This document shows, in pieces, positions 5,402-33,275 of a DNA stretch of 64,000 bases. Source of the DNA: an uncultured Bacteroidales bacterium. Its GTDB lineage: Bacteria > Bacteroidota > Bacteroidia > Bacteroidales > UBA932. Position 1 is the stretch's first letter. Each line of letters starts with the position of its first letter. The position numbers were made by a program, and so were the translations under genes. Location: positions 10,037 through 74,036 of the forward strand of contig CALVDR010000007.1 in the NCBI GenBank assembly GCA_944326365.1, read 5' to 3'. The notes under the pieces are model-generated. The model saw only the letters and a program-made list of their open reading frames with translations, made no database searches and was not told the origin of the DNA.

Positions 5402-6024
5402 TTCACCTCCCCGTGCAATATCCCGGCTCTCACGGCGAAATCTATGATATAGTCGGCAGTGCCTTCGATCCCGAGGATGGAGGAATCCACGCACAGGTCA
5501 TAGTTCGAAGCCACACCCCAGTTTCCGAAAGTGTAGTAGTTGTAGTAGGTTTCCCTTTTCCTGTCCGTCTTCTCTATCAGATCCACGGCCTTTTCCCTGT
5601 TGAGTCCCATCCTTTCCATGATCATCCCGATCCTGTTTTCCAGAGGAGCGGTAATGAACACGTCTACCGTGCAGCCCATGTCACGCAGGATGTAGTCGGC
5701 GCATCTGCCTACGATGACGGCGGATTCCTTTTCGGCTATGTCCCTGATGACGGAACTCTGTATCTGGAACAGGTTTTCTCCGTTCAGGTAATTTTTCGGG
5801 GAGCCGAATGTCTGGGTCGCGAAGAATGACGACACCGGGAAGAGATTCCGCTTCTCGTCTTTCTTTTTGAATACGTCGGGACTGAACCCGCTGGATTCGG
5901 CGGCTTTGGTGATGAGCTCATTGTCATAGACGTGTATGCCCAGTTTCCTGCCGAGTTCCAGGGCGACCTGTTTGCCTCCGCTGCCGAACTGGCGTCCGAG
6001 ATTGATTATTATCTTGCCTTCCAT
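5398..6024 (-). CDS. cytidylate-kinase-like family protein (P-loop NTPase)
   Basis: 208 aa. N-terminal INLGRQFGSGGKQVA glycine-rich loop typical of the cytidylate kinase-like family common in Bacteroidales. Confidence 0.7.
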   Translation of the reverse strand: MEGKIIINLGRQFGSGGKQVALELGRKLGIHVYDNELITKAAESSGFSPDVFKKKDEKRNLFPVSSFFATQTFGSPKNYLNGENLFQIQSSVIRDIAEKESAVIVGRCADYILRDMGCTVDVFITAPLENRIGMIMERMGLNREKAVDLIEKTDRKRETYYNYYTFGNWGVASNYDLCVDSSILGIEGTADYIIDFAVRAGILHGEVK

Positions 6025-15719: not shown

Positions 15720-16484
15720 TTATGCTATAATGAGTCTGACTCCCAGTTCTTCCAGTCTGGCACGGGCATTTTCAGGCAGTCCGTCATCTGTGATCAGTAT
15801 GTCTACATTCTCCATCTGGCAGATCCGGGCGAAGCCGCGTTTCCCGAGTTTGCTCGAGTCTGTCAGGACCACGCATTTTTTCGCGGACCTGATGATCTGT
15901 CGGGTGAGGCTTGCTTCTTCCGTGGTGGCGCATGTGATGCCATAGTCCGGATCCAGTCCGTCCACTCCGATGAAGGCCTTGGAACAGAATACGTTGCTTA
16001 TGGCATTGTTGGCTTCCGCTCCGAGGACGGAAAGTGTATTGCTGTACAATAGTCCCCCTACCTGCATGACCGTGATGCCCTGGATGTCCCCCAGATGTGC
16101 GGATATGTTCACGGCCGTACTCACGACATTCAGCCTGCCTTTAGGCTTGAGCACCTCGGCGAATATGGTCATCGTCGAACCGGAAGCTATGATGATGGAG
16201 TCATCGTTTTCTATGAGGGCGGCTGCGGCTTCGGCTATCTTCTGTTTCTTCTCGAAGTTTATCAGTCTCTTTGTGCTCATGGTGATGTCCATGACCTGCG
16301 CAGCCGTAGGCAGGGCACTTCCGTATGCCCTGTAGAGCAGCCCTTTGGCTTCGAGATGGTTCAGGTCCTTGCGTATGGTAGTCTGTGTGACTCCGAATTT
16401 CTCCGCCAGGACCGACACTTTCACAAATCCCTCCTTGACTATGCTGTCCAGTATGTATTTCCTTCTTTCCGCTATAGCCGACAT
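15720..16484 (-). CDS. DeoR/GlpR-family transcriptional regulator
   Basis: 254 aa. N-terminal wHTH (VSVLAEKFGVTQTTIRKDLNHLE) and a C-terminal DeoR sugar-phosphate sensor domain. Divergent from susC. Confidence 0.9.
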   Translation of the reverse strand: MSAIAERRKYILDSIVKEGFVKVSVLAEKFGVTQTTIRKDLNHLEAKGLLYRAYGSALPTAAQVMDITMSTKRLINFEKKQKIAEAAAALIENDDSIIIASGSTMTIFAEVLKPKGRLNVVSTAVNISAHLGDIQGITVMQVGGLLYSNTLSVLGAEANNAISNVFCSKAFIGVDGLDPDYGITCATTEEASLTRQIIRSAKKCVVLTDSSKLGKRGFARICQMENVDILITDDGLPENARARLEELGVRLIIA

Positions 16485-19797: not shown

Positions 19798-19810
19798 GAT
19801 GACGAATATC

Positions 19811-21772
19811 ATGAAAAGATACATTCCAATACTTTCGGTTCTGATGTTGCTTGCCGCCTGCAATGACGACTTCCTGGACAAGCAGCCTCTCGACAAGCTT
19901 TCAGAAGAAGTCGTGTTCAACAGTGCCGCTCTGGCCGAATCATACGTGAATGCACTGTATACGGTGCTTCCTGATCCGTTTCAGGAAGGAAATATCAGCT
20001 GTATCACCGACGAGGGATTCTTCCGCTATGGCGGAACTTCCACAAGATACATCGCGGACGGCAGCATGACGCCTTCCAACGTGATGTACATAGAAGAGGG
20101 AGGTACTGCCCACGATACCAGAACCACTACCCTGAATATCTGGAACCGTGCATACGAGTGGATATACAGGATGAATTATTTCATCAATTATATCACCGTG
20201 AACGGGACTGAAATGGATGAAGCATCCAGGGACAGGCTCATGGGTGAAGTCTACTTCCTCAGGGCATGGGCTTACTATAATCTCATCCAGCGCTATGCCG
20301 GAGTCCCTATCATCACTACTGCCTACAGTCTCAATGACGTGTATGCGGAGGAAAGGGATACTTTCGATGACTGCGTGGATTTCATTCTGGGCGATCTCGA
20401 AACTGCGGAGAAACTTCTGCCTGCGAAGGAAAACTGTCTGCTTGGACGCATAAACAAGGACATCGTCCTGGCTCTCAGATGCCGTGTCACTCTGCTGGCG
20501 GCTTCACCTCTGTTCAACGATCCGGAGCTTCCTCAGGGCAGCGTATTCAGAGGCCGGTATGATTTCCAGGGCAAGTGGGAACGCGCCTACAAGGCAGCCA
20601 AGGCCATAGTCGACAGGGCCGATGTGGATGGGGCATATTCCCTTGATGATACCTACGACGGCTACTGGAAGGACATACATTCCCCTGAACTGATATGGGC
20701 CAAATACTTCATATCGAACGCAGATGCCACAACCAATTCTGCAAAAAAGGCACAGCTACTCTACTCCGTGGTGTATTTCAACGGTTGGACAGCTTGCAAT
20801 CCTACCCAGGCCATGGTCCTGGACTACGAGATGAAGAACGGAAAGAAGATATTCGAAGACGGCTCCGGCTATGATCCCGAGCATCCGTTCAGGGACAGGG
20901 ATCCCCGCTTTTACTATACGTGTGCGGCTCCGTTCAGCACTTACTGCAACACGGATGCTACAGGCTATCATGAAAACGAACTCCTTCTCTATCTCCTGTA
21001 TGACGGAAAGACCAGAGATGATTTCGCAGCCGGAAAGACCGAACCGGACTATACCAGCAAGGCTACGCACCTGTGGCATGCCACGAATACCATGGGCATG
21101 GAGCTGAACAAATGGTACATCCCGACTTCTCCTATCACGGAAGCCGAAGTGGGCAGTCTCCTCTATCCGTGGTTCCGTCTGGCGGAGATGTATCTGAATC
21201 TCGCGGAATGCGCCTACAATCTCGGCTATGAGGACGAATGCCGTACTTACATAAACAAGGTGCGCCAGCGTCCGGACGTGATGATGCCGCAGATCGGTGA
21301 AAGCGGAGAAGCTTTATGGGACAGACTCGTGAACGAACGCCGCATCGAGCTTGCATTCGAGTTCACCCGTTATTTCGATGTCCGCCGCTGGAAAACCGCA
21401 CCGTTCTACGAAAATATCCCTATCGCAGGCATGCGTACGATGATACTCAAGAACGGCGCCCGTCAGGACACTGTATATCGTGTGGTGCGCCCGTATGACG
21501 AGTCGAAGAACAATACCTGCTATTACTGGAAGAATTCCGTGGAACGCCAGAACTACATGTCCGCTACAGGAGAGGATATCGAATGCGTAGTGACTTACAA
21601 GTGGCTCGGGAAAGAGTACAAGGTCGACTACGGCGACTGCTGTCTGACCGTATCTCCTACGCAGAAACATTTCCCGAAGGTGGGAGATGTATATCCGAAC
21701 TATCTGATGCCGATTCCGGCCAATGAGATAGCCAAGGCCAATGGTACCATCGTCCAAAACCCGGGATATTGA
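19811..21772 (+). CDS. susD: SusD/RagB-family nutrient-binding outer-membrane lipoprotein
   Basis: Lipobox MKRYIPILSVLMLLAAC. SusD-typical blocks RAWAYYNLIQRYAGVPI, LAEMYLNLAECAY, ERRIELAFEFTRYFDVRRW. Confidence 0.9.
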   Translation: MKRYIPILSVLMLLAACNDDFLDKQPLDKLSEEVVFNSAALAESYVNALYTVLPDPFQEGNISCITDEGFFRYGGTSTRYIADGSMTPSNVMYIEEGGTAHDTRTTTLNIWNRAYEWIYRMNYFINYITVNGTEMDEASRDRLMGEVYFLRAWAYYNLIQRYAGVPIITTAYSLNDVYAEERDTFDDCVDFILGDLETAEKLLPAKENCLLGRINKDIVLALRCRVTLLAASPLFNDPELPQGSVFRGRYDFQGKWERAYKAAKAIVDRADVDGAYSLDDTYDGYWKDIHSPELIWAKYFISNADATTNSAKKAQLLYSVVYFNGWTACNPTQAMVLDYEMKNGKKIFEDGSGYDPEHPFRDRDPRFYYTCAAPFSTYCNTDATGYHENELLLYLLYDGKTRDDFAAGKTEPDYTSKATHLWHATNTMGMELNKWYIPTSPITEAEVGSLLYPWFRLAEMYLNLAECAYNLGYEDECRTYINKVRQRPDVMMPQIGESGEALWDRLVNERRIELAFEFTRYFDVRRWKTAPFYENIPIAGMRTMILKNGARQDTVYRVVRPYDESKNNTCYYWKNSVERQNYMSATGEDIECVVTYKWLGKEYKVDYGDCCLTVSPTQKHFPKVGDVYPNYLMPIPANEIAKANGTIVQNPGY

Positions 21773-24768
21773 TGAAAAGGATACTGACATATTTTTCTAT
21801 CTTGTGCCTGACGGCAATGTCTCTGGATGCCGCTTCCTTGAAGTGTGCGTTCATCTCGGATGACATTTCCCCTGCGGGGGGGGGTAGGCTTGAGCTTGCC
21901 GGTTTTGCTGCCAGAAAGCAGTTGTCCGACGGCATGCATCTTCCCCTCAGGACTTATGCACTGGCCATAACGGACGGTGAACGGAAAGTATGTATCATTT
22001 CCAATGACCTGATGGAGATCCCGCCGGATCTGGCCGACGGGATAAGGTCTGAAATCAGCCGCCGGTCAGGGCTGTCCCCTGAAAGGATCCTTCTGCATTG
22101 TATCCATACGCACAGTGCGCCGAGGATAGGAGGAGCATGTTCCGTGGAAGGCGGTACGAATGCCGGGTACAGGTCTCAGGTATTCAATGCCATAGTGTCG
22201 AATGCCGTGAAGGTGCTTACGGATGAGTCCCTGTGGCAGGAGTTCTCTCTGGAAGTGGCCAGGGGGTCTGCGGACATTAATTACAACAGATGCGAGAAGA
22301 ACGGTCCGGTGGACCATGATCTGTATGCGGCGCGTTTCGTGGACAGAAAGGGCCGTCCCATCTGCGCCTTCATAAATTTCGCATGCCATCCTGTCTGCAT
22401 GGGACCGTCCAGTCTGCTGGTTTCATCGGATTATTCCGGGGTGGCCAGACGTGAAATCGCAAGGAAATGGGGCTGCGAAGTGTTCCAGCTTACAGGGGCC
22501 GGCGGAAACATGGATCCGGTCGGAGGCTGTCTGGATGCCGCCCATGCGGAAAAGACAGGTCACGAGCTGTATCGTTCTCTTGAAAAGATGAAATTCACCC
22601 CGGCAGAGTCCCGGGACAGGCTGGCTTTCGCATCGCGGCACGCCGCCCTGCCGTTCAGCATACCGGAGGTGACTCCGGATGCCGTGCGTGCCCATGCCGA
22701 CTCGTTGGCCGGAAGTGCGGAGACCGATTTCCCGCGGTTTGCGGAAGATGTCCGCGGATGGGAGAAAGAAATATTGGCCCGGTTCGAGACCGGGACAGTC
22801 GAAAATTCCCTGGATTTCGAAATGGCGGCCGTCAACATTGACGGAGTCATCTTTTTCTTTTCGCAGGGCGAGCCTTTCTGCGAGTATCAGATGGCTGCGC
22901 GTGCTACTTTTCCGGACAAGATGATATTTTTCGCGGGGTACACGGGCGGCCAGAATTCATATCTGCCGTCAGCGCACGCATACAAGGTCCGTAAAGGGTA
23001 CGAATATGAGATAGAGCAGATGCATGTCTACATCAAGGCTCCTTATCCGCTGTCTGAAGAGATGCCTGCAGCATATCAGGAGGCTGTCTTCAAGACCATA
23101 GCTGCAGTCGGGGCAGATGAGAGGTATTCCATCATACCGGCACCGCGTCATCTCGAACCTCGTGAAGGTGAACATGTGTTCACGGGAGAGCCGCAGGTGA
23201 AGTATCTGGATGATGACTCTGTTCCTGAGGAAGGCTACATTCTGGATATAACCCCGAAAAGGATAACCGTGTCTGCCAGTTCGGAAGCAGGGCGGTTCTA
23301 TGCCATGCAGACCATCATGCAGCTTCTTCCTGCAGAAGTCTACGGCGACGGAGGATTCGCCGGCAGAAAATGGTCGCTTCCATGTTGCCGGATAGAAGAC
23401 TGGCCCGAATACGGCTGGCGTGGCATGCACATGGACTGCGGCAGGTGGTTTCATGCCAAGGAAGAAATCTACAGGTTCCTGGACATGATGGCCATGCACA
23501 AGCAGAATGTTTTCCACTGGCATCTTACGGAAGACCAGGGCTGGAGGATAGAAATCAGGAAATATCCGCGGCTGACGGAGGTCGGGGCGTGGAGATCGGA
23601 GACCTGCGGCTATGACGGTCCGTGTGACGGCCGGCCTCATGGAGGGTGGTATTCGCAGGATGATATCCGGGACGTGGTGGCCTATGCCGCCGGGAGATTC
23701 ATCACCGTGGTCCCTGAAATAGAGCTTCCGGGGCATTCGAGCGCAGCCATAGCGGCTTATCCGTGGCTGTCCTGCACACCTGACGAGCCGAAGGAAGTAA
23801 GTACGCACTGGGGAGTGATGGAGGATGTCTACTGCCCGAGTCCGCGGACTTTCAGGTTTCTCGAAGATGTATTCACTGAAGTGCTGGAACTTTTCCCTTC
23901 CAGGTATTATCATATAGGAGGTGACGAATGTCCTAAGACGGCATGGAGGAACAGCGGGTATTGTCACAGGCTGGCAGACAGTCTGGGTCTTTCCGGTGTG
24001 GATGATCTCCAGTATTATTTCGTCAAGCATTTCGATGCGTTTCTCCGCGAGAGGGGGAAGACTGTGATAGGATGGGACGAGATTCTGGACGGCAGTGCTG
24101 TGAATAGTACCGTAGTTATGTCCTACAGAGGGCATGCGCCGGCATCGAAGGCATTCGCCCGGGACATGAAGGTCATATTGGCTCCCAACAGATGGTGCTA
24201 CTATGACTATGTGCAGGACGAGATCGAGGATATTCCTGAAAACCAGCACCTTTTCATCACTCTGAGAAAAGCCTATACCTATGATTTCCGCCAGATGGTA
24301 GACCCGGAAGTGCTGGCCAGGGCGGACAGCCTGCTGCTTGGCTTCCAGGCCTGTCTGTGGGGAGAAGCGATACATGATGACAAGGACCTGCAGCATCACG
24401 CTTATCCGCGGTCTGCAGCCATGGCCGAACTCAGCTGGTCACCGGCGGAGTCCAGAGACTGGAATTCGTTCCGCCTGAGGGTGGAAAAAGAATTCGACAG
24501 GGTAAAAGCCCAAGGACAGGAATACAGTGATGCTTACTGGCAGGTCATCATAAACATGGACCTCGAATCCGATTATCCGCGTTCGGCGGAACTGGAACTG
24601 GACTATCCTTTCGCCGACATCCGCTATACCGTAGACGGCAGTGAGCCGTCCGCGGATTCTCCTTTGGCCCCTTACCGTATTCGGGTGGACAAGGGAATGA
24701 CTCTCAAGGCCAGAGGCTTCAAGGCTGACGGCACACCGGTAGGACGTACTGTAACCAGAATATTCTGA
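21772..24768 (+). CDS. fusion protein: neutral/alkaline-ceramidase-like N-terminal domain + GH20 beta-N-acetylhexosaminidase
   Basis: 998 aa. N-terminal ~450 aa has the ceramidase-like pattern (LAGF...LRTYALAITDGERKVCIISNDL...LLHCIHTHSAPRIGG...FINFACHPV). From about nt 23130 it is GH20b + GH20 (IIPAPRHLEPREG, HWHLTEDQGWRIEIRKYPRLTE, HIGGDECPK) plus a chitobiase C-terminal-like domain. TGATG junction with susD. Confidence 0.85.
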   Translation: MKRILTYFSILCLTAMSLDAASLKCAFISDDISPAGGGRLELAGFAARKQLSDGMHLPLRTYALAITDGERKVCIISNDLMEIPPDLADGIRSEISRRSGLSPERILLHCIHTHSAPRIGGACSVEGGTNAGYRSQVFNAIVSNAVKVLTDESLWQEFSLEVARGSADINYNRCEKNGPVDHDLYAARFVDRKGRPICAFINFACHPVCMGPSSLLVSSDYSGVARREIARKWGCEVFQLTGAGGNMDPVGGCLDAAHAEKTGHELYRSLEKMKFTPAESRDRLAFASRHAALPFSIPEVTPDAVRAHADSLAGSAETDFPRFAEDVRGWEKEILARFETGTVENSLDFEMAAVNIDGVIFFFSQGEPFCEYQMAARATFPDKMIFFAGYTGGQNSYLPSAHAYKVRKGYEYEIEQMHVYIKAPYPLSEEMPAAYQEAVFKTIAAVGADERYSIIPAPRHLEPREGEHVFTGEPQVKYLDDDSVPEEGYILDITPKRITVSASSEAGRFYAMQTIMQLLPAEVYGDGGFAGRKWSLPCCRIEDWPEYGWRGMHMDCGRWFHAKEEIYRFLDMMAMHKQNVFHWHLTEDQGWRIEIRKYPRLTEVGAWRSETCGYDGPCDGRPHGGWYSQDDIRDVVAYAAGRFITVVPEIELPGHSSAAIAAYPWLSCTPDEPKEVSTHWGVMEDVYCPSPRTFRFLEDVFTEVLELFPSRYYHIGGDECPKTAWRNSGYCHRLADSLGLSGVDDLQYYFVKHFDAFLRERGKTVIGWDEILDGSAVNSTVVMSYRGHAPASKAFARDMKVILAPNRWCYYDYVQDEIEDIPENQHLFITLRKAYTYDFRQMVDPEVLARADSLLLGFQACLWGEAIHDDKDLQHHAYPRSAAMAELSWSPAESRDWNSFRLRVEKEFDRVKAQGQEYSDAYWQVIINMDLESDYPRSAELELDYPFADIRYTVDGSEPSADSPLAPYRIRVDKGMTLKARGFKADGTPVGRTVTRIF

Positions 24769-24770
24769 TC

Positions 24771-26627
24771 ATGCGAAAATTTTACATAATCTCCCTATTT
24801 TCCCTTCTCGCGGCGCTGGCCTCTTGCTCCCGGACATCGGAACAGTCCGTGACACAGGACAGGACCGCGCAGGTGAACGTCATTCCTCAGCCGCATCATC
24901 TCCAGATGGCTGAAGGAGCGTTCAGGATAGACAGGGACACGAAGATATTCATCGACGTGCAGTCTGATGAAATGTTACGGATTGCAGGTTTTCTGAATGA
25001 AAGACTGTCATCGGCTGCAGGCTTCAGTCTGGAGATTTCCGGGACCATGCCGGAATCGGATGCCATATACTTCATGAATGCCGGGCTGCCTGCGGAATCC
25101 TACGGCATGAACGTGACTCCGGACAGGATCGTGATAGACTATGGTGACGGTGCGGGGGCTTTCTATGCGTTGCAGACGCTTTTCCAGCTGCTGCCGCCGG
25201 AGATATTTGCCGGCAGCCGTCAGAAAGGAATCAGGTGGGAAGTCCCGTGCCTTTCCATCGAGGATGAACCGAGGTTCGCCTATCGCGGGATGCATCTGGA
25301 TGTCTGCCTGCACTTTTTCGATATCGATTTTCTGAAAAAGTACATCGACATCATGGCCCTGCACAAGGTAAACCGTTTCCACTGGCACCTTACGGAGGAT
25401 CAGGGATGGAGACTGGAGATCAGGAAATATCCGCTTCTGACCGAGAAAGGCCAGTGGAGGAAAGAGACAGTGGTCGGTTCTCTGAAGTCAGGCATTTATG
25501 ACGGGATTCCATACGGAGGATATTATTCCCAGGAGCAGGTGAAGGATCTGGTCAGATACGCTGCAGAGAGATACGTGACCATCATCCCGGAGATAGAACT
25601 TCCGGGACATGCGCTGGCTGCCATTTCCTGCTATCCCGAGCTCTCGTGCGGACTGGAAGACCACTATGAAACTGCTACCAAATGGGGTGTGTTCAAGCAG
25701 GTTTATTGTCCGAAAGAAACTACGTTCGAGTTTCTGGAGGACGTCTTCGACGAGGTGTTCGAACTTTTCCCGTCCGAGGTCGTGCATATCGGCGGCGATG
25801 AATGTCCGAAAGCCAGCTGGAAGGAATGTCCTCACTGCCAGTCCCTCATCCGCAAACTTGGCCTGAAGGACGAATACGAGCTTCAGAGCTGGTTCGTGAC
25901 CAGAATGGAGAAATACATAAATTCCAAAGGCCGTCAGATCATCGGCTGGGATGAAATCCTTCAGGGAGGGCTGGCGCCCAATGCCAAAGTGATGAGCTGG
26001 CTCGGCGAGGAAGGCGGCATAAGAGCGGCGCAGCAGCATCACGAAGTCGTGATGGCCCCTCATCAGAAATACTATCTGGACTATTGGCAGGGAGATCCGG
26101 ATTCCGAACCCCTGGCCATGGGAGGCCCGACGACATTGAGGACCATGTATGACTACGAGCCGGTTCCCGAGATCCTTACTCCGGAACAGTCGAGGTATAT
26201 CATCGGAGTGGAAGGCTGTGTCTGGACGGAATATATGGACAGTCCGGAGCGTGTGGAGTATATGGCGTGGCCGAGGATGTGCGCGATAGCAGAGACAGGC
26301 TGGACGAGGGCCGGGAAGGACTGGGACTCTTTTGCCAGACGTCTGGAAACCCATTTCGGAAGACTGGACTATCTGGATGTGGGGTATTGCGATGCATTTT
26401 TCGAACCGTACATAGTCTGCCACGAGGATACCAGATACAGCAAGGTGGTGACCATGTCAGTGGATGCTCCGGGTGCAGAGATTCATTACACCCTGGACGG
26501 ATCGGAACCGGGACCTGACTCTCCGGTGTATGCGAAACCGTTCGTCATAAACAGATCGCAGACAGTCAAAGCGGTGGCGGTCAGAGACGGCCGCCCTATA
26601 GGCGATATAAAAACCAAACAATTCTAA
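24771..26627 (+). CDS. GH20 beta-N-acetylhexosaminidase, lipoprotein
   Basis: 618 aa. Lipobox LLAALASC, GH20b (VIPQPHHLQMAEGAF), catalytic blocks HWHLTEDQGWRLEIRKYPLLTE and HIGGDECPK. Paralogous to the C-terminal two-thirds of the preceding gene. Confidence 0.92.
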   Translation: MRKFYIISLFSLLAALASCSRTSEQSVTQDRTAQVNVIPQPHHLQMAEGAFRIDRDTKIFIDVQSDEMLRIAGFLNERLSSAAGFSLEISGTMPESDAIYFMNAGLPAESYGMNVTPDRIVIDYGDGAGAFYALQTLFQLLPPEIFAGSRQKGIRWEVPCLSIEDEPRFAYRGMHLDVCLHFFDIDFLKKYIDIMALHKVNRFHWHLTEDQGWRLEIRKYPLLTEKGQWRKETVVGSLKSGIYDGIPYGGYYSQEQVKDLVRYAAERYVTIIPEIELPGHALAAISCYPELSCGLEDHYETATKWGVFKQVYCPKETTFEFLEDVFDEVFELFPSEVVHIGGDECPKASWKECPHCQSLIRKLGLKDEYELQSWFVTRMEKYINSKGRQIIGWDEILQGGLAPNAKVMSWLGEEGGIRAAQQHHEVVMAPHQKYYLDYWQGDPDSEPLAMGGPTTLRTMYDYEPVPEILTPEQSRYIIGVEGCVWTEYMDSPERVEYMAWPRMCAIAETGWTRAGKDWDSFARRLETHFGRLDYLDVGYCDAFFEPYIVCHEDTRYSKVVTMSVDAPGAEIHYTLDGSEPGPDSPVYAKPFVINRSQTVKAVAVRDGRPIGDIKTKQF

Positions 26628-26639
26628 AAGTTCTTATCT

Positions 26640-27485
26640 ATGGCATTAAGAGTAACAGAACAACCGTCATTGTATGACCATCTGGAGAAGAAATCGGTGG
26701 CCGAAATACTTCATGACATCAACGAGGAGGACAAGAAAGTCCCTCTCGCTATAGAAAAGGCGCTGCCTGACCTGGAAAGACTGGTCAGTGCTATCGAACA
26801 TCAGCTTCGCAATGGCGGAAGGATGTTCTATGTGGGCTGCGGGACGGGGGGCCGTCTGTCTGTCCTGGATCAGGTGGAGCTCCCGAACACTTACGGTATT
26901 GACCCGGAGATGATACAGTGCGTCCTGGCCGGCGGTGTGGAGAATCTGGTATTGGCCCTCGAAGAGGCCGAAGATGATATCGAAGAGGGATGGAGGACCC
27001 TTCAGGAAAAACATGTCAGCCCTAAAGACATAATAGTGGGGATAAGTGCCAGCGGCTGCACTCCGTATGTGCTCGCCACGCTGAAACACTGTCAGGAAAA
27101 CGGTATACCTACCGGATCTTTTGTCGGGAATCCTGATTCTCCTATTTCGAAGTATTCGGACTATCCTTGCGAGATCGTGTGCGGACCGGAGTATATCACG
27201 GGAAGCACCAGGATGAAGTGCGGTACAGTACAGAAACTGGTATGTGACATGATCAGCACCACTGTGCTCATCCGCCTGGGACGTATCGAAGGGAACCGGA
27301 TGGTGAATGTCCGCCTGATAAACAACAAGGTAGTGGACCGTTCTGTCAGGATGCTGATGGAGAGGAATCCGTCGCTGAAGGACTATGACTGGTGCGAGAA
27401 GATGATCAAGGAGAACGGCAATGTGAAAAAGACAGAGCAGTATCTCTATGAGCATGGTTATATAGACAAACTTCCGGAAGAATGA
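26640..27485 (+). CDS. murQ: N-acetylmuramic acid 6-phosphate etherase
   Basis: 281 aa SIS-domain protein with MurQ-type blocks FYVGCGTGGRLSVLD, ISASGCTPYV, GSTRMKCGTVQKLV, NRMVNV. Confidence 0.88.
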   Translation: MALRVTEQPSLYDHLEKKSVAEILHDINEEDKKVPLAIEKALPDLERLVSAIEHQLRNGGRMFYVGCGTGGRLSVLDQVELPNTYGIDPEMIQCVLAGGVENLVLALEEAEDDIEEGWRTLQEKHVSPKDIIVGISASGCTPYVLATLKHCQENGIPTGSFVGNPDSPISKYSDYPCEIVCGPEYITGSTRMKCGTVQKLVCDMISTTVLIRLGRIEGNRMVNVRLINNKVVDRSVRMLMERNPSLKDYDWCEKMIKENGNVKKTEQYLYEHGYIDKLPEE

Positions 27486-28867
27486 ACATGGGCATGAAGC
27501 ATGGAATAGCTGTCTTTGTGTCGCAGTTGATGGTTTCAGCTGTGCTCCTCACCCTGTCCTCCGGCTGTGACCGGAACGACGGTCCCGACCTGACCCGTTT
27601 CTCCGGCGTAGTCATCAACGAAGTGGCGGCCCATGACGAGAGGACGGACGCGGAAAGCTGGGTGGAGCTGGTGAATACGTCTTCCGGGACTGTGGATCTG
27701 TCCGGACTCGGACTTTTCCTGTATGACGAGTATTTCGACGGCATGAATATCCATGATTTCGCCGGGCAGAGTCTTTCTGCAGGTGAGCGCATGGTGCTGA
27801 GCACTGCCGATGACGGTCTGCGTACAGGTTTCGCTTCAGATGCACAGTTCGAGCTGCGTCTGGCTCCTGACAGGTCGGGAGAAGCCGTCGACAGTTTCAG
27901 CCGGGATGCCATATCTTCTCCCGGGGCGTTGCCGGTAGCGGGATCTTATCAGCGTATTCCTGACGGAAACGGAACATGGACATCGTCCCCGGCCGCTTCT
28001 CGCGGAAAGGCGAATCTGATACTGTCTCTGGAAAATACGAAACATAATGCTATCTGGCTGTGGAGTACTCACATGAAGGAATGGCTGGCTGACGATGCGG
28101 CCGTCATGAAACGGATGAAGGCTCTGGGATACGATCATGTCCTGCTGAATTATGCTGCATTCCAGTACAGCAATGCGAAGACTGCCAGGGAATTCATGGC
28201 CGCAGCGGCAGATGCTGGCATTATGGTCCATGCCTGGATACAGTGTTTCTATAACGGAGGATGGGTAAGCCCGGTGATAGATGCTGAAAACAGGTATGAC
28301 CAGGCTCTTTTCGATGATATCATCGAGAGAGCAGGCGGGTATATCGATGAATTCGGCGTCCAGGGAATTCATCTGGACTATATCAGATTCGGCGGTACGG
28401 CATACAAGCACAATCCTTCAGCCGAGATTACGGCCGTGGGGGCCGTGACCGAGTTCTGCCGCCAGATCCGTGAAGCCATGGATGCCAGAGGTGAAAACAT
28501 CATCCTTTCGGCTGCCATGATGGCTGAGGACAACGCAGCTTATTACTATGGACAGAATGCTGCCCAGATGGGACGGTACATTCATATACTGATGCCGATG
28601 ATCTACAGGTATCAGGAGGGCGGAGTCTCGTACAGTACGGACTGGTGCATGAAGATGGTGCGACTTTTCACTACAGTCACAGATGCCCAGGTGTGGGCCG
28701 GTACGCAGACTTACAGCTATGTCGGCAACAATGTCAGCGGGCTGGATGAGGAACGGCTGCGTTCCGACTGTGAGGATTTCGTCGGATCCGGAGCCTCGGG
28801 AATAGTCCTGTTCAGATATGCACTCGGGACATTCCCTGACGTGAATGACTTATGGGAGTCAGAATAG
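27482..28867 (+). CDS. lipoprotein: lamin-tail domain (LTD) + glycoside-hydrolase-like TIM barrel (GHL10/YngK-like)
   Basis: 461 aa. Lipobox LTLSSGC. LTD pattern VVINEVAAHDERTDAESWVELVNTSSGTVDLSGLGL. C-terminal (beta/alpha)8-like region with GIHLDYIRF and ILMPMIYRY blocks. ATGA overlap with murQ. Confidence 0.6.
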   Translation: MNMGMKHGIAVFVSQLMVSAVLLTLSSGCDRNDGPDLTRFSGVVINEVAAHDERTDAESWVELVNTSSGTVDLSGLGLFLYDEYFDGMNIHDFAGQSLSAGERMVLSTADDGLRTGFASDAQFELRLAPDRSGEAVDSFSRDAISSPGALPVAGSYQRIPDGNGTWTSSPAASRGKANLILSLENTKHNAIWLWSTHMKEWLADDAAVMKRMKALGYDHVLLNYAAFQYSNAKTAREFMAAAADAGIMVHAWIQCFYNGGWVSPVIDAENRYDQALFDDIIERAGGYIDEFGVQGIHLDYIRFGGTAYKHNPSAEITAVGAVTEFCRQIREAMDARGENIILSAAMMAEDNAAYYYGQNAAQMGRYIHILMPMIYRYQEGGVSYSTDWCMKMVRLFTTVTDAQVWAGTQTYSYVGNNVSGLDEERLRSDCEDFVGSGASGIVLFRYALGTFPDVNDLWESE

Positions 28868-28902
28868 GAAAACATCATTTAACACTTTAAACTAATAGTA
28901 TT

Positions 28903-31203
28903 ATGAAAAAGATTGCTTTGTTTTTGATGCCGGTTCTCGCCGTGGCAATGCTTTTTACGGGATGCGACAAGAATAAGGTCGACCCTGAAGAGCCGGTCAA
29001 GAGCGTAGGAACATTTACGCAGGCAGCCATAGTGGATGCTGTGGCCGGCATGTATGCGGAATGGACGGAAACCACTACCATTCCTCAGGAACTCAAAGTC
29101 TCAAACGCTACACTGACGCTGCCTCAGTATCAGTACGCCATGGCCAGACTCATGGTGGACATCAGGGACGGCAATGCAGGTGACATAGAGGTCCTGAACT
29201 TCAAACCGGCCGACCATCCGGAGCGTGACAGCTATGATGCGGAGACTATCGCAGTGTACGGCGGTCCGTCTGACGGGTCGAACACTGAAGACCTCGGAAA
29301 CATCGCCGAACGTATGATAGCCGCCATGTCAGAAGACGGACAGGTGCCTAACCAGACACTCTTCACCAGAGATGGGGAAGCCATCGCTTATTCCACAAAC
29401 CGTGCTACCGTGACTTTTGCCCGCGCCATCAGCGCCTACAAGGAAGACGGCAAGATGCCGGAAAGCGTGACTACCGACTATCTTTCTGCCGCAGCTACAC
29501 TGAAAGGCTTCGCACAGCAGTTCGTCACATATCTTGACGTATGGGAGAACAACATCGCCGAAACCCTGAGCGCAGACGGTTCGCACTGTTCAGACAACGA
29601 AACAGCCTGGGAGAACGTACACTTCATTCCTATTCCTTATTCAGGAGGCTATACCGATGGCGTGGATCAGTATGACCCTAAGTACCAGCCGTACCATACC
29701 ATCACGGTGGACGGAGTTACATATTCTGCAGCTCAGTGCTGGGGTATCGCCCTCAAAGGTATCCTCGACCTGGTGACAGTGGAAGGCTCAGCAGTGCTCC
29801 CTGCCGAAAGAAATGAAACGGTACATACGCTCGGAAACGGAAAACCGCTTACTACTCCTATTCCTGCATTGGAAGACTTCTTCGAGTGGGGACTGTATCC
29901 ATGGTATGAAAAGGCTGACGATCCTTGTGTCATCAGGGATGACAATGGCGAAATCCGTTCTGTAGGCATCGACTTCCTGGTCAAGCTCATTCCATGGCAT
30001 CTGACCCGTTCAAGCCAGCTCGGAGCCATAGGCAACTTCCAGACGTTCGGTGAAGATCCTGCGAGCGCCCTCGTGCTTCCTCCATACGAAGGAAATATCA
30101 GCCCTATGAGAGAGCTGCTTATAGCTGCACGTTTCTACAAATATCTGCTTGACAACGATATCAACGAGAATGTCTATGATGCCATGAAAGACGTCATGAT
30201 AGACGCAGACCTGTATGGTGTGGACCCTGACCCTCTGTATGTCAGCGAGACAGGACTCAATTTCGCATACGGACAGGGCGAGCAGACATTGAAGGTCACT
30301 GCCCTTTCAGAGAACTGGACCGCTACTTCAAGTGCCGGCTGGGTGACTGTCTCACCGGCTTCAGGTCCTGCATCGGAGACTTCACAGGATGTGACGATAT
30401 CTGTAGTTGCCAATGAAGGCGGTTCCCGTACGGCTACTGTGACATTCTCCATACCTTCGGGTCCTTCAAAAGAGGTGACAGTCACTCAGGCTCCGTCCCC
30501 TTCTACGAACACCATAAAGGATTTCGTCACCGAATACGTGAAGATACTTGATATCTGGGAAGAGACTGTCGGCACTGTGAACTACCTTGACGGAATCGGA
30601 GCCACTACGAACGAAGATAACGCGCCGTACGATGTGGAGAATGCCCACTATGTCCCTATGGAGACAACCATCACTGTCGGTGACCAGACATTGGGTACTG
30701 CTGACATGTTCGAACTCGCTATCAGGTCATACCTGCTGCTCAGAGGCTATGACGGAAACAGCACTACCGGAGGAAACGGGACTTTCGAGTCCGTGACACC
30801 TGCCACACTGTCTTCCACCCTGCCTGATACCCACGCCTACAAATGGGGAAGCAATCCGTTCAACGAGACCGGTTCCACTTCTGCGGGCAATGTCACCCAA
30901 GGCAACGGCGGTGAACTCAGGATGGGCGACCCTAATACGGCTGACGGAGTGGAAGCGGTGAAGTTCGACATCCTGGACAATTTCGCGCAGCGCAGCTGCA
31001 ATTATCCTATTAACAACGGCTCTCAGATCTCCAATATGTGCGGATATGCTGCAGGCCAGCTGGTCGGATACTATGGCTGCTTCTGCGCCCAGCGAGGTCT
31101 CATCACTTATGCATATTTCTTCAAATATATGCTTGACAACAACCTTGAGGATCTTTCTACGGTTCAGGAAGATCATGTGTTCGAGACGCATTTGTTCAAA
31201 TAG
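28903..31203 (+). CDS. large surface lipoprotein with three copies of a PMBR-like module and one BACON domain
   Basis: 766 aa. Lipobox AMLFTGC. BACON-like segment at about nt 30290-30495 (NWTATSSAGWVTVSPASGPASETSQDVTISVVANEGGSRTATVTFSI...VTVTQ). Internally repeated module, see findings. Confidence 0.7.
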   Translation: MKKIALFLMPVLAVAMLFTGCDKNKVDPEEPVKSVGTFTQAAIVDAVAGMYAEWTETTTIPQELKVSNATLTLPQYQYAMARLMVDIRDGNAGDIEVLNFKPADHPERDSYDAETIAVYGGPSDGSNTEDLGNIAERMIAAMSEDGQVPNQTLFTRDGEAIAYSTNRATVTFARAISAYKEDGKMPESVTTDYLSAAATLKGFAQQFVTYLDVWENNIAETLSADGSHCSDNETAWENVHFIPIPYSGGYTDGVDQYDPKYQPYHTITVDGVTYSAAQCWGIALKGILDLVTVEGSAVLPAERNETVHTLGNGKPLTTPIPALEDFFEWGLYPWYEKADDPCVIRDDNGEIRSVGIDFLVKLIPWHLTRSSQLGAIGNFQTFGEDPASALVLPPYEGNISPMRELLIAARFYKYLLDNDINENVYDAMKDVMIDADLYGVDPDPLYVSETGLNFAYGQGEQTLKVTALSENWTATSSAGWVTVSPASGPASETSQDVTISVVANEGGSRTATVTFSIPSGPSKEVTVTQAPSPSTNTIKDFVTEYVKILDIWEETVGTVNYLDGIGATTNEDNAPYDVENAHYVPMETTITVGDQTLGTADMFELAIRSYLLLRGYDGNSTTGGNGTFESVTPATLSSTLPDTHAYKWGSNPFNETGSTSAGNVTQGNGGELRMGDPNTADGVEAVKFDILDNFAQRSCNYPINNGSQISNMCGYAAGQLVGYYGCFCAQRGLITYAYFFKYMLDNNLEDLSTVQEDHVFETHLFK

Positions 31204-31260
31204 CGGTTAATAGTGTTTTCCAGCCTCCGGATTGTGCCGGAAAGGCAGTGTGACGAGGGT

Positions 31261-31318
31261 GACTGAAAGGAGAAGTTTCAAGTGCGACACGGAAGTACCC
31301 TTTTCAGTCGCCCTTTTT
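31261..31318 (+). terminator. possible internal attenuator/terminator hairpin within the locus
   Basis: GACTGAAAGG (31261-31270) pairs with CC(T)TTTCAGTC (31299-31309; one bulged T), with a 28-nt loop. It is followed by GCCCTTTTT. It sits in the 153-nt gap between the BACON lipoprotein gene and the transglutaminase-like gene. Confidence 0.3.
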
Positions 31319-31356
31319 AATTGGTTTGACCGGAATCCGGTTTTAACGACTTTTTT

Positions 31357-32391
31357 ATGAAACGATATATAACTTCGATAGCGGTTCTTTCCGTATTGCT
31401 TTTTATAAGTTGCGCCTGCGACAAAAACAGCGGCGACAGCGGTAAGGACGATGTTGACGTGGAGTTCACGGCAACAGGTTGGAACGGATATTTCGCGGAA
31501 GCTCTGGCGAAGGCCTATGATGAGTTCTCGGAGACAGGGGATATCCCTGCGACCGTAAATGTGGAAGGGCTGAAATACAACAGGGGCAGGTACCTGGCTG
31601 CCGGCATCCAGATTCTCAGGAAAATCATCGCGGAACCTGATACATGGCAGGATGAGGATGTGACTTACATTATAGCCTCCGGACCTGACAGCTATGCGAA
31701 CAATACCTTCAATGACGATGTCATGACTTTCGATGCATTCATGGACGTGCTTGATATCGCCTATGAATACGCCGGAGAGCGAAATGTTTTCCCGAACTAC
31801 TGCACTACGGAAGCAGAGCATAAGGACCCTGACGGTTCGGTGTATTCCGTAAAGATGACCATCAATACCATCTATGTCATGATGACGAGGGTTTTCGCAT
31901 ATTTCGTGGAAAACAATTCCCTGCCTGAAGAAATCAGCACCTGGGATGCTGACTATCTCCATGAGACGCTGAACTGCGAAGTTTCCGATCCTCTGGTGGT
32001 ATCTGCCATGGAGACCGCCACTGAAGGCCTGGTTTCGGACTACGACAGGGCGAAGGCCATTTTCGAATATGCCCGTGACGAATGGGAGTGGCTGAACTAC
32101 AACAACACTTCCAAAGGTGCGGTCGGGACCATTCAGGACAAGGGAGGAAACTGCTGCGACCTGACACATGCCATAGTGGCCATGAGCCGGGCTGCCGGCA
32201 TACCGGCCAGATACAGACACGCCCAGTGCCAGTACGCGAGCGGGGTGATAGGCCATGTGATAGCCGAGATTTACGTTGACGGAGTCTGGTATCCGGCCGA
32301 TGCTTCGAACAACGAGAATACTTTCGGAAACCACGAGGCCTGGTCGCACATGGCCACGTTCAACGGCAGGTATAACGAACTTCCATTCTGA
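31357..32391 (+). CDS. transglutaminase-core (cysteine-peptidase-like) lipoprotein with N-terminal PMBR-like modules
   Basis: 344 aa. Lipobox LLFISC. C-terminal transglutaminase core with Cys/His/Asp context KGGNCCDLTHAIVAMSRAAGIPARY...GHVIAEIYVDGVWYPADAS. The N-terminus shares the module of the preceding gene. Confidence 0.75.
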   Translation: MKRYITSIAVLSVLLFISCACDKNSGDSGKDDVDVEFTATGWNGYFAEALAKAYDEFSETGDIPATVNVEGLKYNRGRYLAAGIQILRKIIAEPDTWQDEDVTYIIASGPDSYANNTFNDDVMTFDAFMDVLDIAYEYAGERNVFPNYCTTEAEHKDPDGSVYSVKMTINTIYVMMTRVFAYFVENNSLPEEISTWDADYLHETLNCEVSDPLVVSAMETATEGLVSDYDRAKAIFEYARDEWEWLNYNNTSKGAVGTIQDKGGNCCDLTHAIVAMSRAAGIPARYRHAQCQYASGVIGHVIAEIYVDGVWYPADASNNENTFGNHEAWSHMATFNGRYNELPF

Positions 32392-32408
32392 AACAGGAGA
32401 AACCATAC

Positions 32409-33275
32409 ATGATTCTGATAGCCGACAGCGGGGCCTCGAAGACCGACTGGTCCTGCATAAGAAAACAGACTTTCGAGCGGATGTCCTTCATCAGCCAGGG
32501 CTACAACCCGAATTACATCTCAAGTGCGGACATGGTGGAGGATATCAGGAACAGTCTTCCTGAATCGTTCCCTGCGGAACAGGTCTCGGAGATTTATTTT
32601 TACGGAGCAGGAGTCACCCCGCTGCAGTACCCGTTCATGACCGACACATTGCTGAAAGTGTTCCGGAACGCGGAGACTGTCTTTATAGCCATGGATACCC
32701 TGGCTTCCTGCCGAGCCCTTCTCGGGACAGAACCGGGCTTCGCTGCCATTCTGGGAACCGGGGCCAACACCTGCCTGTACGACGGGGAGAACGAGTGTTT
32801 CAACGTGGATTCCTGCGGCTTCATCCTCGGTGACGAAGGCAGCGGAGGCTATCTTGGAAAGAGGATGATTACGGACTATATCAGACGCAACATGCCTTCC
32901 CGCGTGTACCGTCTGGTGGGAGAAGCCCTTGGGTATGGCAACGATGAACTTCTCGACATCATATACACCAGGCCTTTCCCGAACAGGTTCTGCGCCCAGT
33001 ACGCCAGATTCATCAGGGAGCATACTGATTTCGATCCCTATTTCCCGGAACTGGTCACGGACGCGTTCCGGAAGTTCTTCGACCGTATCGTGACGCGCTA
33101 TGACCATTACCGCTCGTACAAGTTCAACGCGGTAGGGTCGGTCGCCTACCATTTCAGAGACCTCCTCGATCCTGTCGTGGCCGAATACGGCATGGAAATA
33201 GGCAAGATAGCCAAGGCGCCTATGGACGGGCTCGTGGAATACCACACGGCAAAACTCTCGAAAAATAAGGAATGA
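32409..33275 (+). CDS. BadF/BadG/BcrA/BcrD-type sugar kinase, MurK-like (MurNAc/GlcNAc kinase)
   Basis: 288 aa. ASKHA phosphate-1 MILIADSGASKTDW, ILGTGANTCLYDG, GFILGDEGSGGYLGKR. Same family and size as the Tannerella MurNAc kinase. Confidence 0.75.
   Translation: MILIADSGASKTDWSCIRKQTFERMSFISQGYNPNYISSADMVEDIRNSLPESFPAEQVSEIYFYGAGVTPLQYPFMTDTLLKVFRNAETVFIAMDTLASCRALLGTEPGFAAILGTGANTCLYDGENECFNVDSCGFILGDEGSGGYLGKRMITDYIRRNMPSRVYRLVGEALGYGNDELLDIIYTRPFPNRFCAQYARFIREHTDFDPYFPELVTDAFRKFFDRIVTRYDHYRSYKFNAVGSVAYHFRDLLDPVVAEYGMEIGKIAKAPMDGLVEYHTAKLSKNKE

Follow-up and report, generated by a model that had tools for sequence, protein, structure and literature searches.

TG344, a protein of 344 amino acids encoded in the window (the whole stretch of 64,000 nucleotides of Bacteroidales DNA analysed here), is a candidate surface cysteine peptidase, which would bind cell-wall glycan and cut peptide links of peptidoglycan for fragment import. 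Judged from sequence, predicted structure and gene context, we put the probability of this reading at roughly 55%. TG344 is probably a cell-wall peptide cutter of a kind common to two domains of life, and it is a candidate for a novel class of endopeptidase acting on peptidoglycan (or pseudomurein).

The initial annotation of this DNA had placed an open reading frame on the forward strand, which was recovered at exactly 31357-32391 with every quoted motif string present in its translation. Read from that translation, the two N-terminal motifs, FAEALAKAYDEFSETGDIPATVNV and IYVMMTRVFAYFVENNSLPEEIS, occupy residues 46-69 and 171-193, and the catalytic strings GGNCCD, GHVIAEIY and WYPADAS occupy residues 263-268, 299-306 and 311-317. 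An antisense frame of 399 amino acids (31207-32406, reverse strand) was not accepted as a gene, since all evidence from homology, Pfam and structure is on the forward strand. The gene comprises the following features:

31357..32391, forward strand: TG344 gene, 344 amino acids, from ATG to stop (stop codon 32389-32391), a predicted lipoprotein with three pseudomurein-binding repeat (PMBR)-type repeats and a Transglut_core domain
31357..31413, forward strand: signal peptide with a lipobox-like ...LLFIS-C19, by sequence reading, with a second Cys at 21
31492..31563, forward strand: PMBR-type repeat 1, residues 46-69, the first of the two motifs above
31714..31806, forward strand: PMBR-type repeat 2, residues ~120-150 (MTFDAFMDVLDIAYEYAGERNVFPNYCT), missed by the initial annotation
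31855..31938, forward strand: PMBR-type repeat 3, residues 167-194, covering the second motif
31972..32388, forward strand: transglutaminase-core (papain-like) domain, residues 206-344, including the conserved ...ELPF C-terminus
32152-32154, 32254-32256 and 32299-32301, forward strand: predicted triad of Cys266, His300 and Asp315, invariant (n=54)

Searches recovered 188 homologues of TG344, and a set of 54 family members was used for conservation and domain counts. The lipobox-like Cys is present in 41 of these 54 members and is followed by acidic or Pro-rich linkers. In TG344 this linker is a D/E-rich tether (residues 20-40), which has low confidence (pLDDT <50 for residues 18-26) in an AlphaFold2 model with an overall pLDDT of 91.8 and pTM of 0.86. 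TG344 would be exposed at the cell surface as a tethered lipoprotein.

The proposal of a transglutaminase core with catalytic Cys, His and Asp was borne out by Pfam Transglut_core (PF01841), which matched residues 222-316 of TG344 (E 8.7e-18, 65 bits vs a cutoff of 23) as well as all members of the family set (54/54), and by the invariance of C266, H300 and D315 in that set. Cys266 aligns with the nucleophile of the Transglut_core profile and with that of 3isr from Cytophaga hutchinsonii (the Cys of GVC; alignment E 6.5e-6), which was the sole significant match when the PDB was searched with the TG344 sequence. This protein also gave the best local superposition on the TG344 model (rmsd 2.0-3.3 Å, 120-147 columns). 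Both 3isr, described only as a 'putative cysteine protease', and TgpA (6g49) of Pseudomonas, which is periplasmic and essential, share the Transglut_core fold and triad with TG344, but what matches is the catalytic core alone, a region in which no wall-binding module of PMBR type was detected. Enzymes of the transglutaminase fold can also catalyse transamidation, deamidation and PNGase-type glycoamidase reactions.

The N-terminal motif repeats noticed previously are genuine and of PMBR type, but they number three, not two. Pfam hmmscan of TG344 at E<=1 returned Transglut_core alone, with no match to the PMBR profile PF09373, and no NCBIfam model matched, so it is the family as a whole that supports the PMBR assignment. 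The initial annotation had held that a missing PMBR profile hit would refute its proposal; such a hit is indeed missing from TG344 taken alone, but the objection is overturned by the family. The segment homologous to repeat 2 matches PF09373 in 30 of the 54 members (best E 5.8e-11, up to 41 bits vs a cutoff of 24.9), and full-length homologues with Pfam PMBR and Transglut_core matches have 44-49% identity to TG344. The family profile of repeat 2 recognises all four repeats of PeiP (18.4 bits) and 4/4 repeats of PeiW (44.6 bits in total). Profile-profile comparison placed the three repeats of TG344 in register (E 2e-5 for 1 vs 2, 3.5e-6 for 1 vs 3, and 1e-4), and the model contains helix 42-60, Pro64 and strand 66-69 in repeat 1; strand 122-124, helix 125-142 and strand 148-156 in repeat 2; and strand 162-168, helix 169-186 and strand 192-194 in repeat 3. 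Among the 54 members A53, Y54 and P64 of repeat 1 are invariant or nearly so, and P190 of repeat 3 is invariant.

Residues 47-344 of TG344 are collinear with proteins of methanogens and Clostridia in which Pfam identifies both PMBR and Transglut_core, and the two previously noted motifs land on PMBR 1 and PMBR 3 of those proteins. Repeat 1 aligns with PMBR 1 (residues 399-419) of the methanogen protein L070, and repeat 3 is collinear with the third PMBR of L070, L072 and L076; three PMBR stretches are counted by Pfam in L072. Support for homology between the tandem repeats of TG344 and PMBR is thus indirect but consistent. A PMBR HMM seeded from PeiP and PeiW only and iterated on archaeal and Clostridia homologues matched neither TG344 nor the neighbouring BACON protein; this HMM stayed Pei-biased and its silence is uninformative.

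A Pei-like architecture had been proposed for TG344, and four independent lines of evidence agree on it. PeiP and PeiW, the pseudomurein endoisopeptidases of the Methanothermobacter (pro)phages psiM2 and psiM100 (MEROPS C71; PDB 8z4f, 8jx4), likewise begin with PMBR-type repeats and continue into a Cys-His-Asp domain of papain/transglutaminase fold, with a shared G-x-N-C-x-D around the nucleophile (GNCCD in TG344, INCTD in Pei). In the structural comparison, full-length PeiP was the best Foldseek match of the TG344 model in both the PDB (8z4f_A, E 9.3e-11) and BFVD (Q77WJ4, E 7.7e-11), over 324-330 columns. Whole-chain TM-scores against PeiP were low (0.31-0.34), indicating that the domain arrangement differs, and the match to the PeiW catalytic domain 8jx4 (E 5e-4, TM 0.27/0.55) is at fold level only.

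Membership of TG344 in Peptidase_C71 was rejected, as PF12386 gave no match to it at E<=1 and hhalign of the family against PeiP and PeiW left the catalytic halves unaligned, matching repeat 2 alone to PMBR 4 (E 3.6e-4, probability 37%). With a PF01841 catalytic domain where Pei has PF12386, TG344 is therefore Pei-like, not Pei. It further differs in having three repeats where Pei has four, in being a predicted lipoprotein of a chromosomal PUL and not a phage lysin, and in a genomic context that points to murein, not pseudomurein. Its repeat module is strongly acidic (pI 4.1), whereas that of Pei is basic (9.5-9.8), so that TG344 may bind in another way and possibly to another ligand.

The TG344 gene lies in a run of genes from 16705 to 34495 that are all on the forward strand, in a bacterial chromosomal PUL with housekeeping genes on either side and none of the setting of an archaeal virus or provirus lysin. 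Its neighbours are:

15720..16484, reverse strand: DeoR/AgaR-family regulator, divergently transcribed (NCBIfam AgaR, E 2.7e-63)
16705-19797, forward strand: SusC-like TonB-dependent transporter (Pfam Plug/CarbopepD_reg)
19799-21772, forward strand: SusD-like protein (Pfam SusD_RagB/SusD-like_3), which together with SusC defines the PUL
21769..26627, forward strand: two GH20 beta-N-acetylhexosaminidases (Pfam GH20, E 5e-105 and 9e-120)
26640..27485, forward strand: MurQ-type N-acetylmuramic acid 6-phosphate etherase (NCBIfam NF003915, 296.6 bits vs a cutoff of 168)
27482..28867, forward strand: protein of 461 amino acids with LTD and DUF4015 (GH-like TIM barrel) domains (Pfam)
28903..31203, forward strand: BACON lipoprotein of 766 amino acids, adjoining the TG344 gene
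32409-33275, forward strand: MurK/K1058-family sugar kinase (PDB 8ow9, 8oqk and 1zxo at E 1e-53 to 1e-58)
33272-34495, forward strand: NagP/GluP-like MFS sugar transporter (NCBIfam and Pfam)

From its position, the DeoR/AgaR-family gene is probably the regulator of the PUL. The first GH20 is fused to a neutral-ceramidase-like N-terminal domain (Ceramidase_alk, E 7.5e-12), and the MFS transporter scored 264 bits, which is under the NagP cutoff of 625 and over the gluP subfamily cutoff. The kinase also matched PDB 8oqw, and the entry title of 8ow9 is 'putative novel MurNAc kinase'.

The BACON protein carries the three-repeat module of TG344 at residues 41-194 (26.6 bits with the N-module profile), its N-terminus has an AF2 secondary-structure pattern that agrees with this module, and representatives of its family were retrieved by the TG344 module profile from a library of 1.84 billion proteins. 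In a Foldseek search of its model the BACON/Ig domain dominated and other parts had no enzyme-like match, and it is probably a surface glycan-binding partner of TG344. Residues 269-448 of the 461-residue protein have 32-35% identity (E ~1e-25) to the DUF4015 domain found in TGase fusions of methanogens, making this protein a candidate glycan-strand-cleaving partner; a related domain, GHL10 of Cwp19, has peptidoglycan lytic transglycosylase activity (PMC6016235). Fusions of BACON with TGase (P0203, P0239 and P0262), and of DUF4015 with PMBR and TGase in methanogens, link these partners by Rosetta-stone evidence, and a GHL10/DUF4015 domain is joined to a TG344-type module in an LPXTG Gram-positive protein.

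The arrangement is conserved across 59 loci from Bacteroidales MAGs, in which the TG344 gene is accompanied by genes for the DUF4015-like protein (53/59), the MurK-like kinase (51/59), the BACON protein and the MFS transporter (48/59 each), GH20 (42/59) and MurQ (41/59), with the missing neighbours mostly at contig ends. Firmicutes labels on three contigs (L031, L054 and L067) were rejected as binning errors because these contigs bear the full Bacteroidales PUL. The carriers are Bacteroidales of the rumen, caecum and hindgut, which live alongside Methanobrevibacter; the RNA runs searched did not contain the locus, which was seen only in DNA metagenomes (chicken gut).

The PUL follows the standard Bacteroidota layout of SusC/D, surface lipoproteins and glycosidases, and resembles murTKQ of Tannerella forsythia in clustering MurQ, a MurK-family kinase and a sugar transporter (PMC5790795). 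It differs from murTKQ in that the salvage genes sit inside a full PUL, which also encodes the Pei-like TG344, a BACON protein with PMBR-type repeats and a DUF4015-like protein. Literature searches on PMBR or transglutaminase in Bacteroidetes, peptidoglycan PULs, DUF4015 and bacterial pseudomurein degradation found no published description of the TG344 family or of such a locus.

In the proposed mechanism, the three PMBR-type repeats would dock TG344 on cell-wall glycan, GlcNAc being the ligand proposed for archaeal PMB domains, and Cys266, His300 and Asp315 of the transglutaminase-fold domain would hydrolyse an amide or isopeptide bond in the wall peptide. The likeliest target would be the cross-link between D-Ala and the epsilon-amino group of mDAP/Lys, chemically analogous to the epsilon-Ala-Lys bond that Pei cleaves, with the gamma-D-Glu to mDAP/Lys bond as the alternative. 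Working beside TG344, the BACON protein, with the same binding module, and the DUF4015-like glycanase would help to break insoluble wall fragments down to muropeptides of a size that SusC/D can take, after which the GH20s, MurK-like kinase, MurQ and MFS transporter would process GlcNAc and MurNAc. We infer each of three elements for TG344, namely hydrolysis rather than cross-linking, murein as the substrate and the bond cut. Cleavage of the stem peptide or cross-link of peptidoglycan, as the initial annotation had suggested, fits the conserved MurQ/MurK-like/GH20/SusCD context, and MurNAc is confined to bacterial murein (PMC5790795).

The closest relatives found outside Bacteroidales are proteins of Methanobacteriota (Methanobacterium, Methanobacteriaceae and Methanosphaera), some of them fused to DUF4015. 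TG344 has 34-48% identity to the TGase domains of Methanobacteriota over the last 150 residues (42-48% for the closest of them), with local BLASTP segments of up to 55%, and 27-32% identity to methanogen proteins over residues 47-344. Archaeal surface proteins such as L072:1138-3426 and L070:8807-10894 consist of DUF4015 or Big repeats, three PMBRs and Transglut_core. They share with TG344 a collinear module of ~300 residues (42-47% identity over the last 150), which contains three PMBRs, an N-C-Q/E linker motif, the TGase core and the ...ELPF end, together with GNCCDL(T/S)H and ARY-H motifs. They differ in being larger, with extra domains in cis and a signal peptide or TM segment in contrast to the lipobox of TG344, and their genes lie outside any PUL, without MurQ or MurK neighbours, in hosts with a wall of pseudomurein. 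In an NJ tree of catalytic domains the Bacteroidales were monophyletic and sister to archaea plus Clostridia.

That these nearest relatives occur in organisms with a pseudomurein wall counts against murein as the substrate of TG344 and favours a proposal, also raised by the initial annotation, that TG344 targets the pseudomurein of co-resident gut or rumen methanogens. Perhaps with its DUF4015-like and BACON partners, it would, like Pei, cleave epsilon-Ala-Lys or gamma-Glu links, and the PUL would serve to forage on or attack archaeal walls. We consider this unlikely. The weak Peptidase_C71 signal in some methanogen relatives (22.7 bits vs a cutoff of 22) agrees with it, as do the homology of the DUF4015 neighbour to the domain fused to methanogen TGase and the shared rumen, caecal and hindgut habitat of the carriers and Methanobrevibacter, but in the tree the Bacteroidales sequences stand apart as one clade instead of branching within the archaeal sequences. 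Archaeal PMB domains are pseudomurein binders that showed no binding to intact murein in vitro (PMC3466432), but the TG344 module lacks the basic charge of the pseudomurein-binding versions and also occurs in Firmicutes proteins with LPXTG or dockerin, whose wall is murein. The PUL itself carries MurQ (41/59) and a MurK-family kinase (51/59), whereas pseudomurein is without MurNAc (PMC2989375).

The identity to the catalytic domains of Methanobacteriota and the matching DUF4015 partner are signs that genes have passed between gut methanogens and bacteria. A more far-reaching reading, to which we give little credence, is that gut and rumen Bacteroidales share with methanogens a wall-hydrolase cassette (DUF4015 glycanase-like plus PMBR-TGase), acquired most simply by inter-domain transfer and built into the PUL, part of which may degrade pseudomurein. 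Such a PUL would be without precedent among bacteria as a means of feeding on archaeal walls or attacking them, and the DUF4015-PMBR-TGase fusions of methanogens would be the long-missing cellular pseudomurein autolysins or glycanases, candidates that could bear on methane mitigation.

A different bond is raised by the core PUL having no Amidase_2 or Amidase_3 gene detectable with Pfam or NCBIfam, although MurK and MurQ need free MurNAc. It is conceivable but doubtful that TG344 is a glyco-amidase and not an endopeptidase, cutting the MurNAc-L-Ala lactyl-amide bond as PNGase cuts GlcNAc-Asn, with peptides stripped from glycan strands and MurNAc passed into the MurK/MurQ route. The triad chemistry is compatible with this activity, and the PNGases 2f4m and 3esw were among the structural matches (E ~1e-3), but PeiP and bacterial TGase-like proteases outmatch PNGase structurally. 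Other candidate amidases exist in the ceramidase-like domain and in AAT/C45-like genes of related PULs, and large wall fragments need surface de-crosslinking before import.

It is very improbable that TG344 works off the cell wall, be it as a non-catalytic binder or with protease, protein-glutaminase or transglutaminase activity towards glycoproteins or glycopeptides of the host or diet (such as mucin or N-glycan substrates processed by GH20s). The commonness of GH20 and BACON in host-glycan PULs, the breadth of Transglut_core activities, the lack of a specific NCBIfam name and the bare 'putative cysteine protease' label of 3isr, the top bacterial structural relative, are set against a MurQ and MurK-family kinase fixed in the locus, a PMBR-type module that recurs with GHL10/DUF4015 wall-glycanase-like domains and an invariant triad that speaks against a pure binding role.

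The glycans for which PULs are known come from plants, hosts, fungi and algae, and muropeptides are potent host immune signals. A conserved PUL for peptidoglycan with a dedicated surface peptidase, as proposed for TG344, would extend the PUL model to bacterial necromass and gut muropeptide turnover. PMBR has been regarded as essentially archaeal. A paper of 2012 (PMC3466432) states that no experiment had by then reported it in bacteria. In many uncultured Bacteroidales of the rumen, caecum and hindgut it is a constant component of two predicted surface proteins, and the PMBR-type module recurs with GHL-type glycanase-like domains in Firmicutes.

Distant related PULs carry an additional glutamate symporter and M20/C1 peptidases, which fits the use of stem peptides.

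The predicted 344-residue lipoprotein TG344 is encoded by an ORF running from ATG to stop at exactly 31357-32391 (+), and its C-terminus, read as a transglutaminase core in the initial annotation, carries Pfam Transglut_core (PF01841) at residues 222-316 (E 8.7e-18). All strings quoted in that annotation are present, comprising the repeat motifs FAEALAKAYDEFSETGDIPATVNV (residues 46-69) and IYVMMTRVFAYFVENNSLPEEIS (171-193) and the catalytic motifs GGNCCD (263-268), GHVIAEIY (299-306) and WYPADAS (311-317); the candidate Cys, His and Asp are C266, H300 and D315, invariant across the 54 aligned family members, as are A53, P64, P190 and W311. A PDB sequence search paired GGNCCDLTH with AGVCRDFAH, the nucleophile motif in 3isr (a putative Cytophaga cysteine protease); 3isr also gave the best local superposition of the catalytic domain (rmsd 2-3 Å). 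Assignment of this domain to Peptidase_C71, the family found in the pseudomurein endoisopeptidases (Pei) PeiP and PeiW of methanogen phages and prophages, was rejected, the domain being Transglut_core, and TG344 is thus a Pei-like design of putative wall-binding repeats and a Cys-His-Asp papain-fold hydrolase that lies outside family C71. The catalytic halves of the TG344 family and of PeiP and PeiW were not aligned by hhalign, the PeiW catalytic domain (8jx4) matched at fold level only (E 5e-4), and some methanogen relatives, in which C71 scores at the borderline (22.7 bits, cutoff 22), bridge the two families only weakly. Homologues are named in databases only as 'transglutaminase family protein' or 'hypothetical protein'. 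A 399-residue antisense ORF spanning the whole gene (31207-32406, -), which lacks homology or domain support, was treated as spurious.

The N-terminus had been proposed to carry pseudomurein-binding repeat (PMBR)-like modules, with a missing PMBR profile match counting against them; hmmscan recovered Transglut_core, and no Pfam PMBR match was found on TG344 itself, even at E<=1. This result is overturned by family-level evidence, which upholds the PMBR-like character of the region. PF09373 was matched in 30 of 54 full-length homologues (44-49% identity), several above the gathering score and the best at 41 bits (E about 1e-10), in a segment corresponding to TG344 residues ~120-150. This segment is a third repeat (MTFDAFMDVLDIAYEYAGERNVFPNYCT), missed by the initial annotation, lying between the two motifs that it had listed. 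A profile of this middle repeat, built from the Bacteroidales family only, matched all four repeats in register in both PeiW (44.6 bits summed) and PeiP (18.4 bits), and hhalign of the family against PeiP and PeiW gave the same pairing (E 3.6e-4). The repeats of TG344 also align to one another in register (first-second E 2e-5, second-third E 1e-4, first-third E 3.5e-6). A home-made repeat HMM seeded from Pei failed to reach TG344 and was uninformative.

The AlphaFold2 model (pLDDT 91.8, pTM 0.86) comprises three units of strand, 18-residue helix, proline loop and strand, followed by a papain-like core. Its best PDB match was full-length PeiP (8z4f_A; E 9.3e-11, 324 aligned columns) and its best BFVD match a PeiP model (Q77WJ4; E 7.7e-11, 330 columns). 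With global TM-scores of only 0.31-0.34 (rmsd 16-19 Å), TG344 and PeiP differ in domain arrangement. PeiP and PeiW are the closest known system, sharing architecture and fold class with TG344 but differing in catalytic family, repeat number (four PMBRs with Peptidase_C71 in PeiP, three repeats with Transglut_core in TG344), repeat charge, anchoring, genomic setting and probable substrate.

The closest homologues are uncharacterised methanogen PMBR-transglutaminase surface proteins. In a scan of the genome collection with exact peptide patterns from the TG344 family, which misses relatives lacking those motifs, relatives outside Bacteroidales came only from Methanobacteriota (Methanobacterium, Methanobacteriaceae, Methanosphaera) and one Clostridia MAG. 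By BLASTP, residues 47-344 are collinear with the C-terminal ~300 residues of L070 from Methanobacteriaceae (32% identity, E 5e-44), and likewise with Methanobacterium L072 (28%) and Clostridia L076 (31%). These three carry Transglut_core and PMBR at 84-137 bits (2, 3 and 5 stretches), and the two originally listed motifs of TG344 align to their PMBR 1 and PMBR 3. Identity over the last 150 residues has a median of 63% within Bacteroidales (range 44-100%), 58% within archaea (45-94%) and 40% between them (34-48%), and a midpoint-rooted NJ tree places monophyletic Bacteroidales as sister to the archaea and Clostridia group. Since such similarity is combined with so narrow a distribution, the simplest reading would be exchange of the gene between domains, and the mainly archaeal occurrence of PMBR (in 2010, 24 proteins from archaea and 7 from bacteria; PMC2989375) would favour an archaeal donor and a bacterial recipient.

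TG344 lies within a polysaccharide utilisation locus (PUL) whose genes at 16705-34495 are all co-oriented:

Genes of the PUL
15720-16484, -, DeoR/AgaR-type regulator, divergent
16705-19797, +, SusC
19799-21772, +, SusD
21769-24768, +, ceramidase-like domain and GH20
24771-26627, +, GH20
26640-27485, +, MurQ (NF003915, 296.6 bits, cutoff 168)
27482-28867, +, LTD and DUF4015 protein
28903-31203, +, 766-residue BACON lipoprotein
31357-32391, +, TG344
32409-33275, +, MurK/K1058-family kinase (PDB 8ow9, 8oqk; E ~1e-55)
33272-34495, +, NagP/GluP-like MFS transporter

A Candidatus Cryptobacteroides intestinipullorum MAG matches the window at 99% identity, and chicken-gut metagenomes commonly contain the locus. 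The scan recovered 59 Bacteroidales loci with the transglutaminase gene, mostly from rumen, omasum, caecum and faecal MAGs, accompanied by the DUF4015-like gene (53/59), kinase (51/59), BACON gene (48/59), MFS transporter (48/59), GH20 (42/59) and MurQ (41/59), absences falling mostly at contig ends. Three loci with GH20, MurQ and kinase sit in bins labelled Lachnospiraceae, Bulleidia and Faecalibacillus (L031, L054, L067; transglutaminase identity 42-45%); a Firmicutes origin was rejected, as their contigs carry the complete Bacteroidales PUL and are almost certainly misbinned. Distant rumen PULs (L006-L008) add, 3' of the MFS gene, a glutamate symporter (Glt_symporter), an AAT/C45-like gene and a GHL10 gene, and encode an 880-913-residue fusion of M20 peptidase and Peptidase_C1_2, which suggests that the stem peptide is catabolised too. 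One goat-omasum MAG has two paralogous transglutaminase genes ~17 kb apart on contig JAFRSW010000022.1 (L043, L061), each beside PUL neighbours; the PUL may have been duplicated there, possibly with diverged specificity. Literature searches turned up no publication on the TG344 family, on PMBR modules from Bacteroidota or on PULs so composed.

Residues 41-194 of the BACON protein match the three-repeat module of TG344 (26.6 bits, module profile) with the same AlphaFold2 secondary-structure pattern, and the profile retrieved BACON-family representatives from 1.84 billion proteins; certain genomes unite the BACON protein with the transglutaminase in a single polypeptide (P0203, P0239, P0262). 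Further helix-strand units flank the BACON domain on both sides, family sizes range from 750 to 1340 residues, and Foldseek matched nothing beyond the BACON/Ig part. The DUF4015-like neighbour has 32-35% identity (E ~1e-25) to the DUF4015 domain fused directly to transglutaminase in methanogens, as DUF4015-TGase or DUF4015-PMBRx3-TGase (Methanobacterium L072:1138-3426, L071:8687-10486). These uncharacterised fusions look like bifunctional pseudomurein hydrolases; we know of no pseudomurein glycanases. The module is rare, as 153 clusters from the entire library passed E<=1e-3, and is joined to Transglut_core, to GHL10/GHL6/DUF4015 in an LPXTG-anchored protein, to dockerin or to NAGPA. Firmicutes-type proteins (P0265, P0253, P0268, P0296) combine it with LPXTG and GHL10/DUF4015, with dockerin or with an NAGPA phosphodiester glycosidase, and PMBR-like modules are therefore not limited to pseudomurein organisms. 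Lytic transglycosylase activity on peptidoglycan is proven for GHL10 (Cwp19; PMC6016235). Taken together, these fusions would tie the module, the transglutaminase and GHL-type barrels to one substrate class, a cell-wall glycopeptide polymer.

Alongside the observed architecture, triad, synteny, fusions and structural match, we propose that a lipobox-like Cys19 and an acidic disordered tether would place TG344 on the cell surface, where its module would dock onto wall glycan. Binding by PMB domains takes three repeats or more (PMC2989375); GlcNAc is a proposed ligand, and these domains attached to bacterial cells treated with lysozyme but failed to bind intact murein (PMC3466432). A wall-peptide amide would be hydrolysed at the Cys-His-Asp site. 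The cleavage of epsilon-Ala-Lys by Pei suggests, by analogy, that this bond is most likely the D-Ala to epsilon-NH2 (mDAP/Lys) cross-link; the chemistry of transglutaminase isopeptidase and NlpC/P60 enzymes suggests gamma-D-Glu to mDAP/Lys as the alternative. The DUF4015-like enzyme would then cut de-crosslinked strands for SusC/D import and trimming by the GH20s, after which MurNAc and GlcNAc would be taken up and phosphorylated and MurQ would remove the lactyl group. The module (31462-31971, residues 36-205) has a net charge of -20 and a strongly acidic pI of 4.1 (family median 4.7), the reverse of the basic PMBR regions of Pei (pI 9.5-9.8), and the transglutaminase fold is also compatible with amidase, deamidase and transamidase chemistry; both points may count against this mechanism. 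Foraging on pseudomurein, which would be of high interest, is an improbable role for the PUL, as the presence of MurQ and a MurK-family kinase speaks for murein instead, MurNAc being absent from pseudomurein (PMC2989375).

The neutral-ceramidase-like (N-acyl amidase) domain at 21769-24768 (+) forms one protein with the first GH20 in this locus and its close relatives and is a separate ~440-residue ORF in the distant PULs L006-L008; it might serve as the missing MurNAc-peptide amidase or as a deacylase. Housekeeping genes (ackA, gyrA, clp, fabF) make up the remainder of the window, with a partial second acetate-kinase-like ORF adjoining ackA (2998-4110, +) and a 469-residue Beta-lactamase-family (PF00144) serine hydrolase (4085-5494, -), both outside the PUL.
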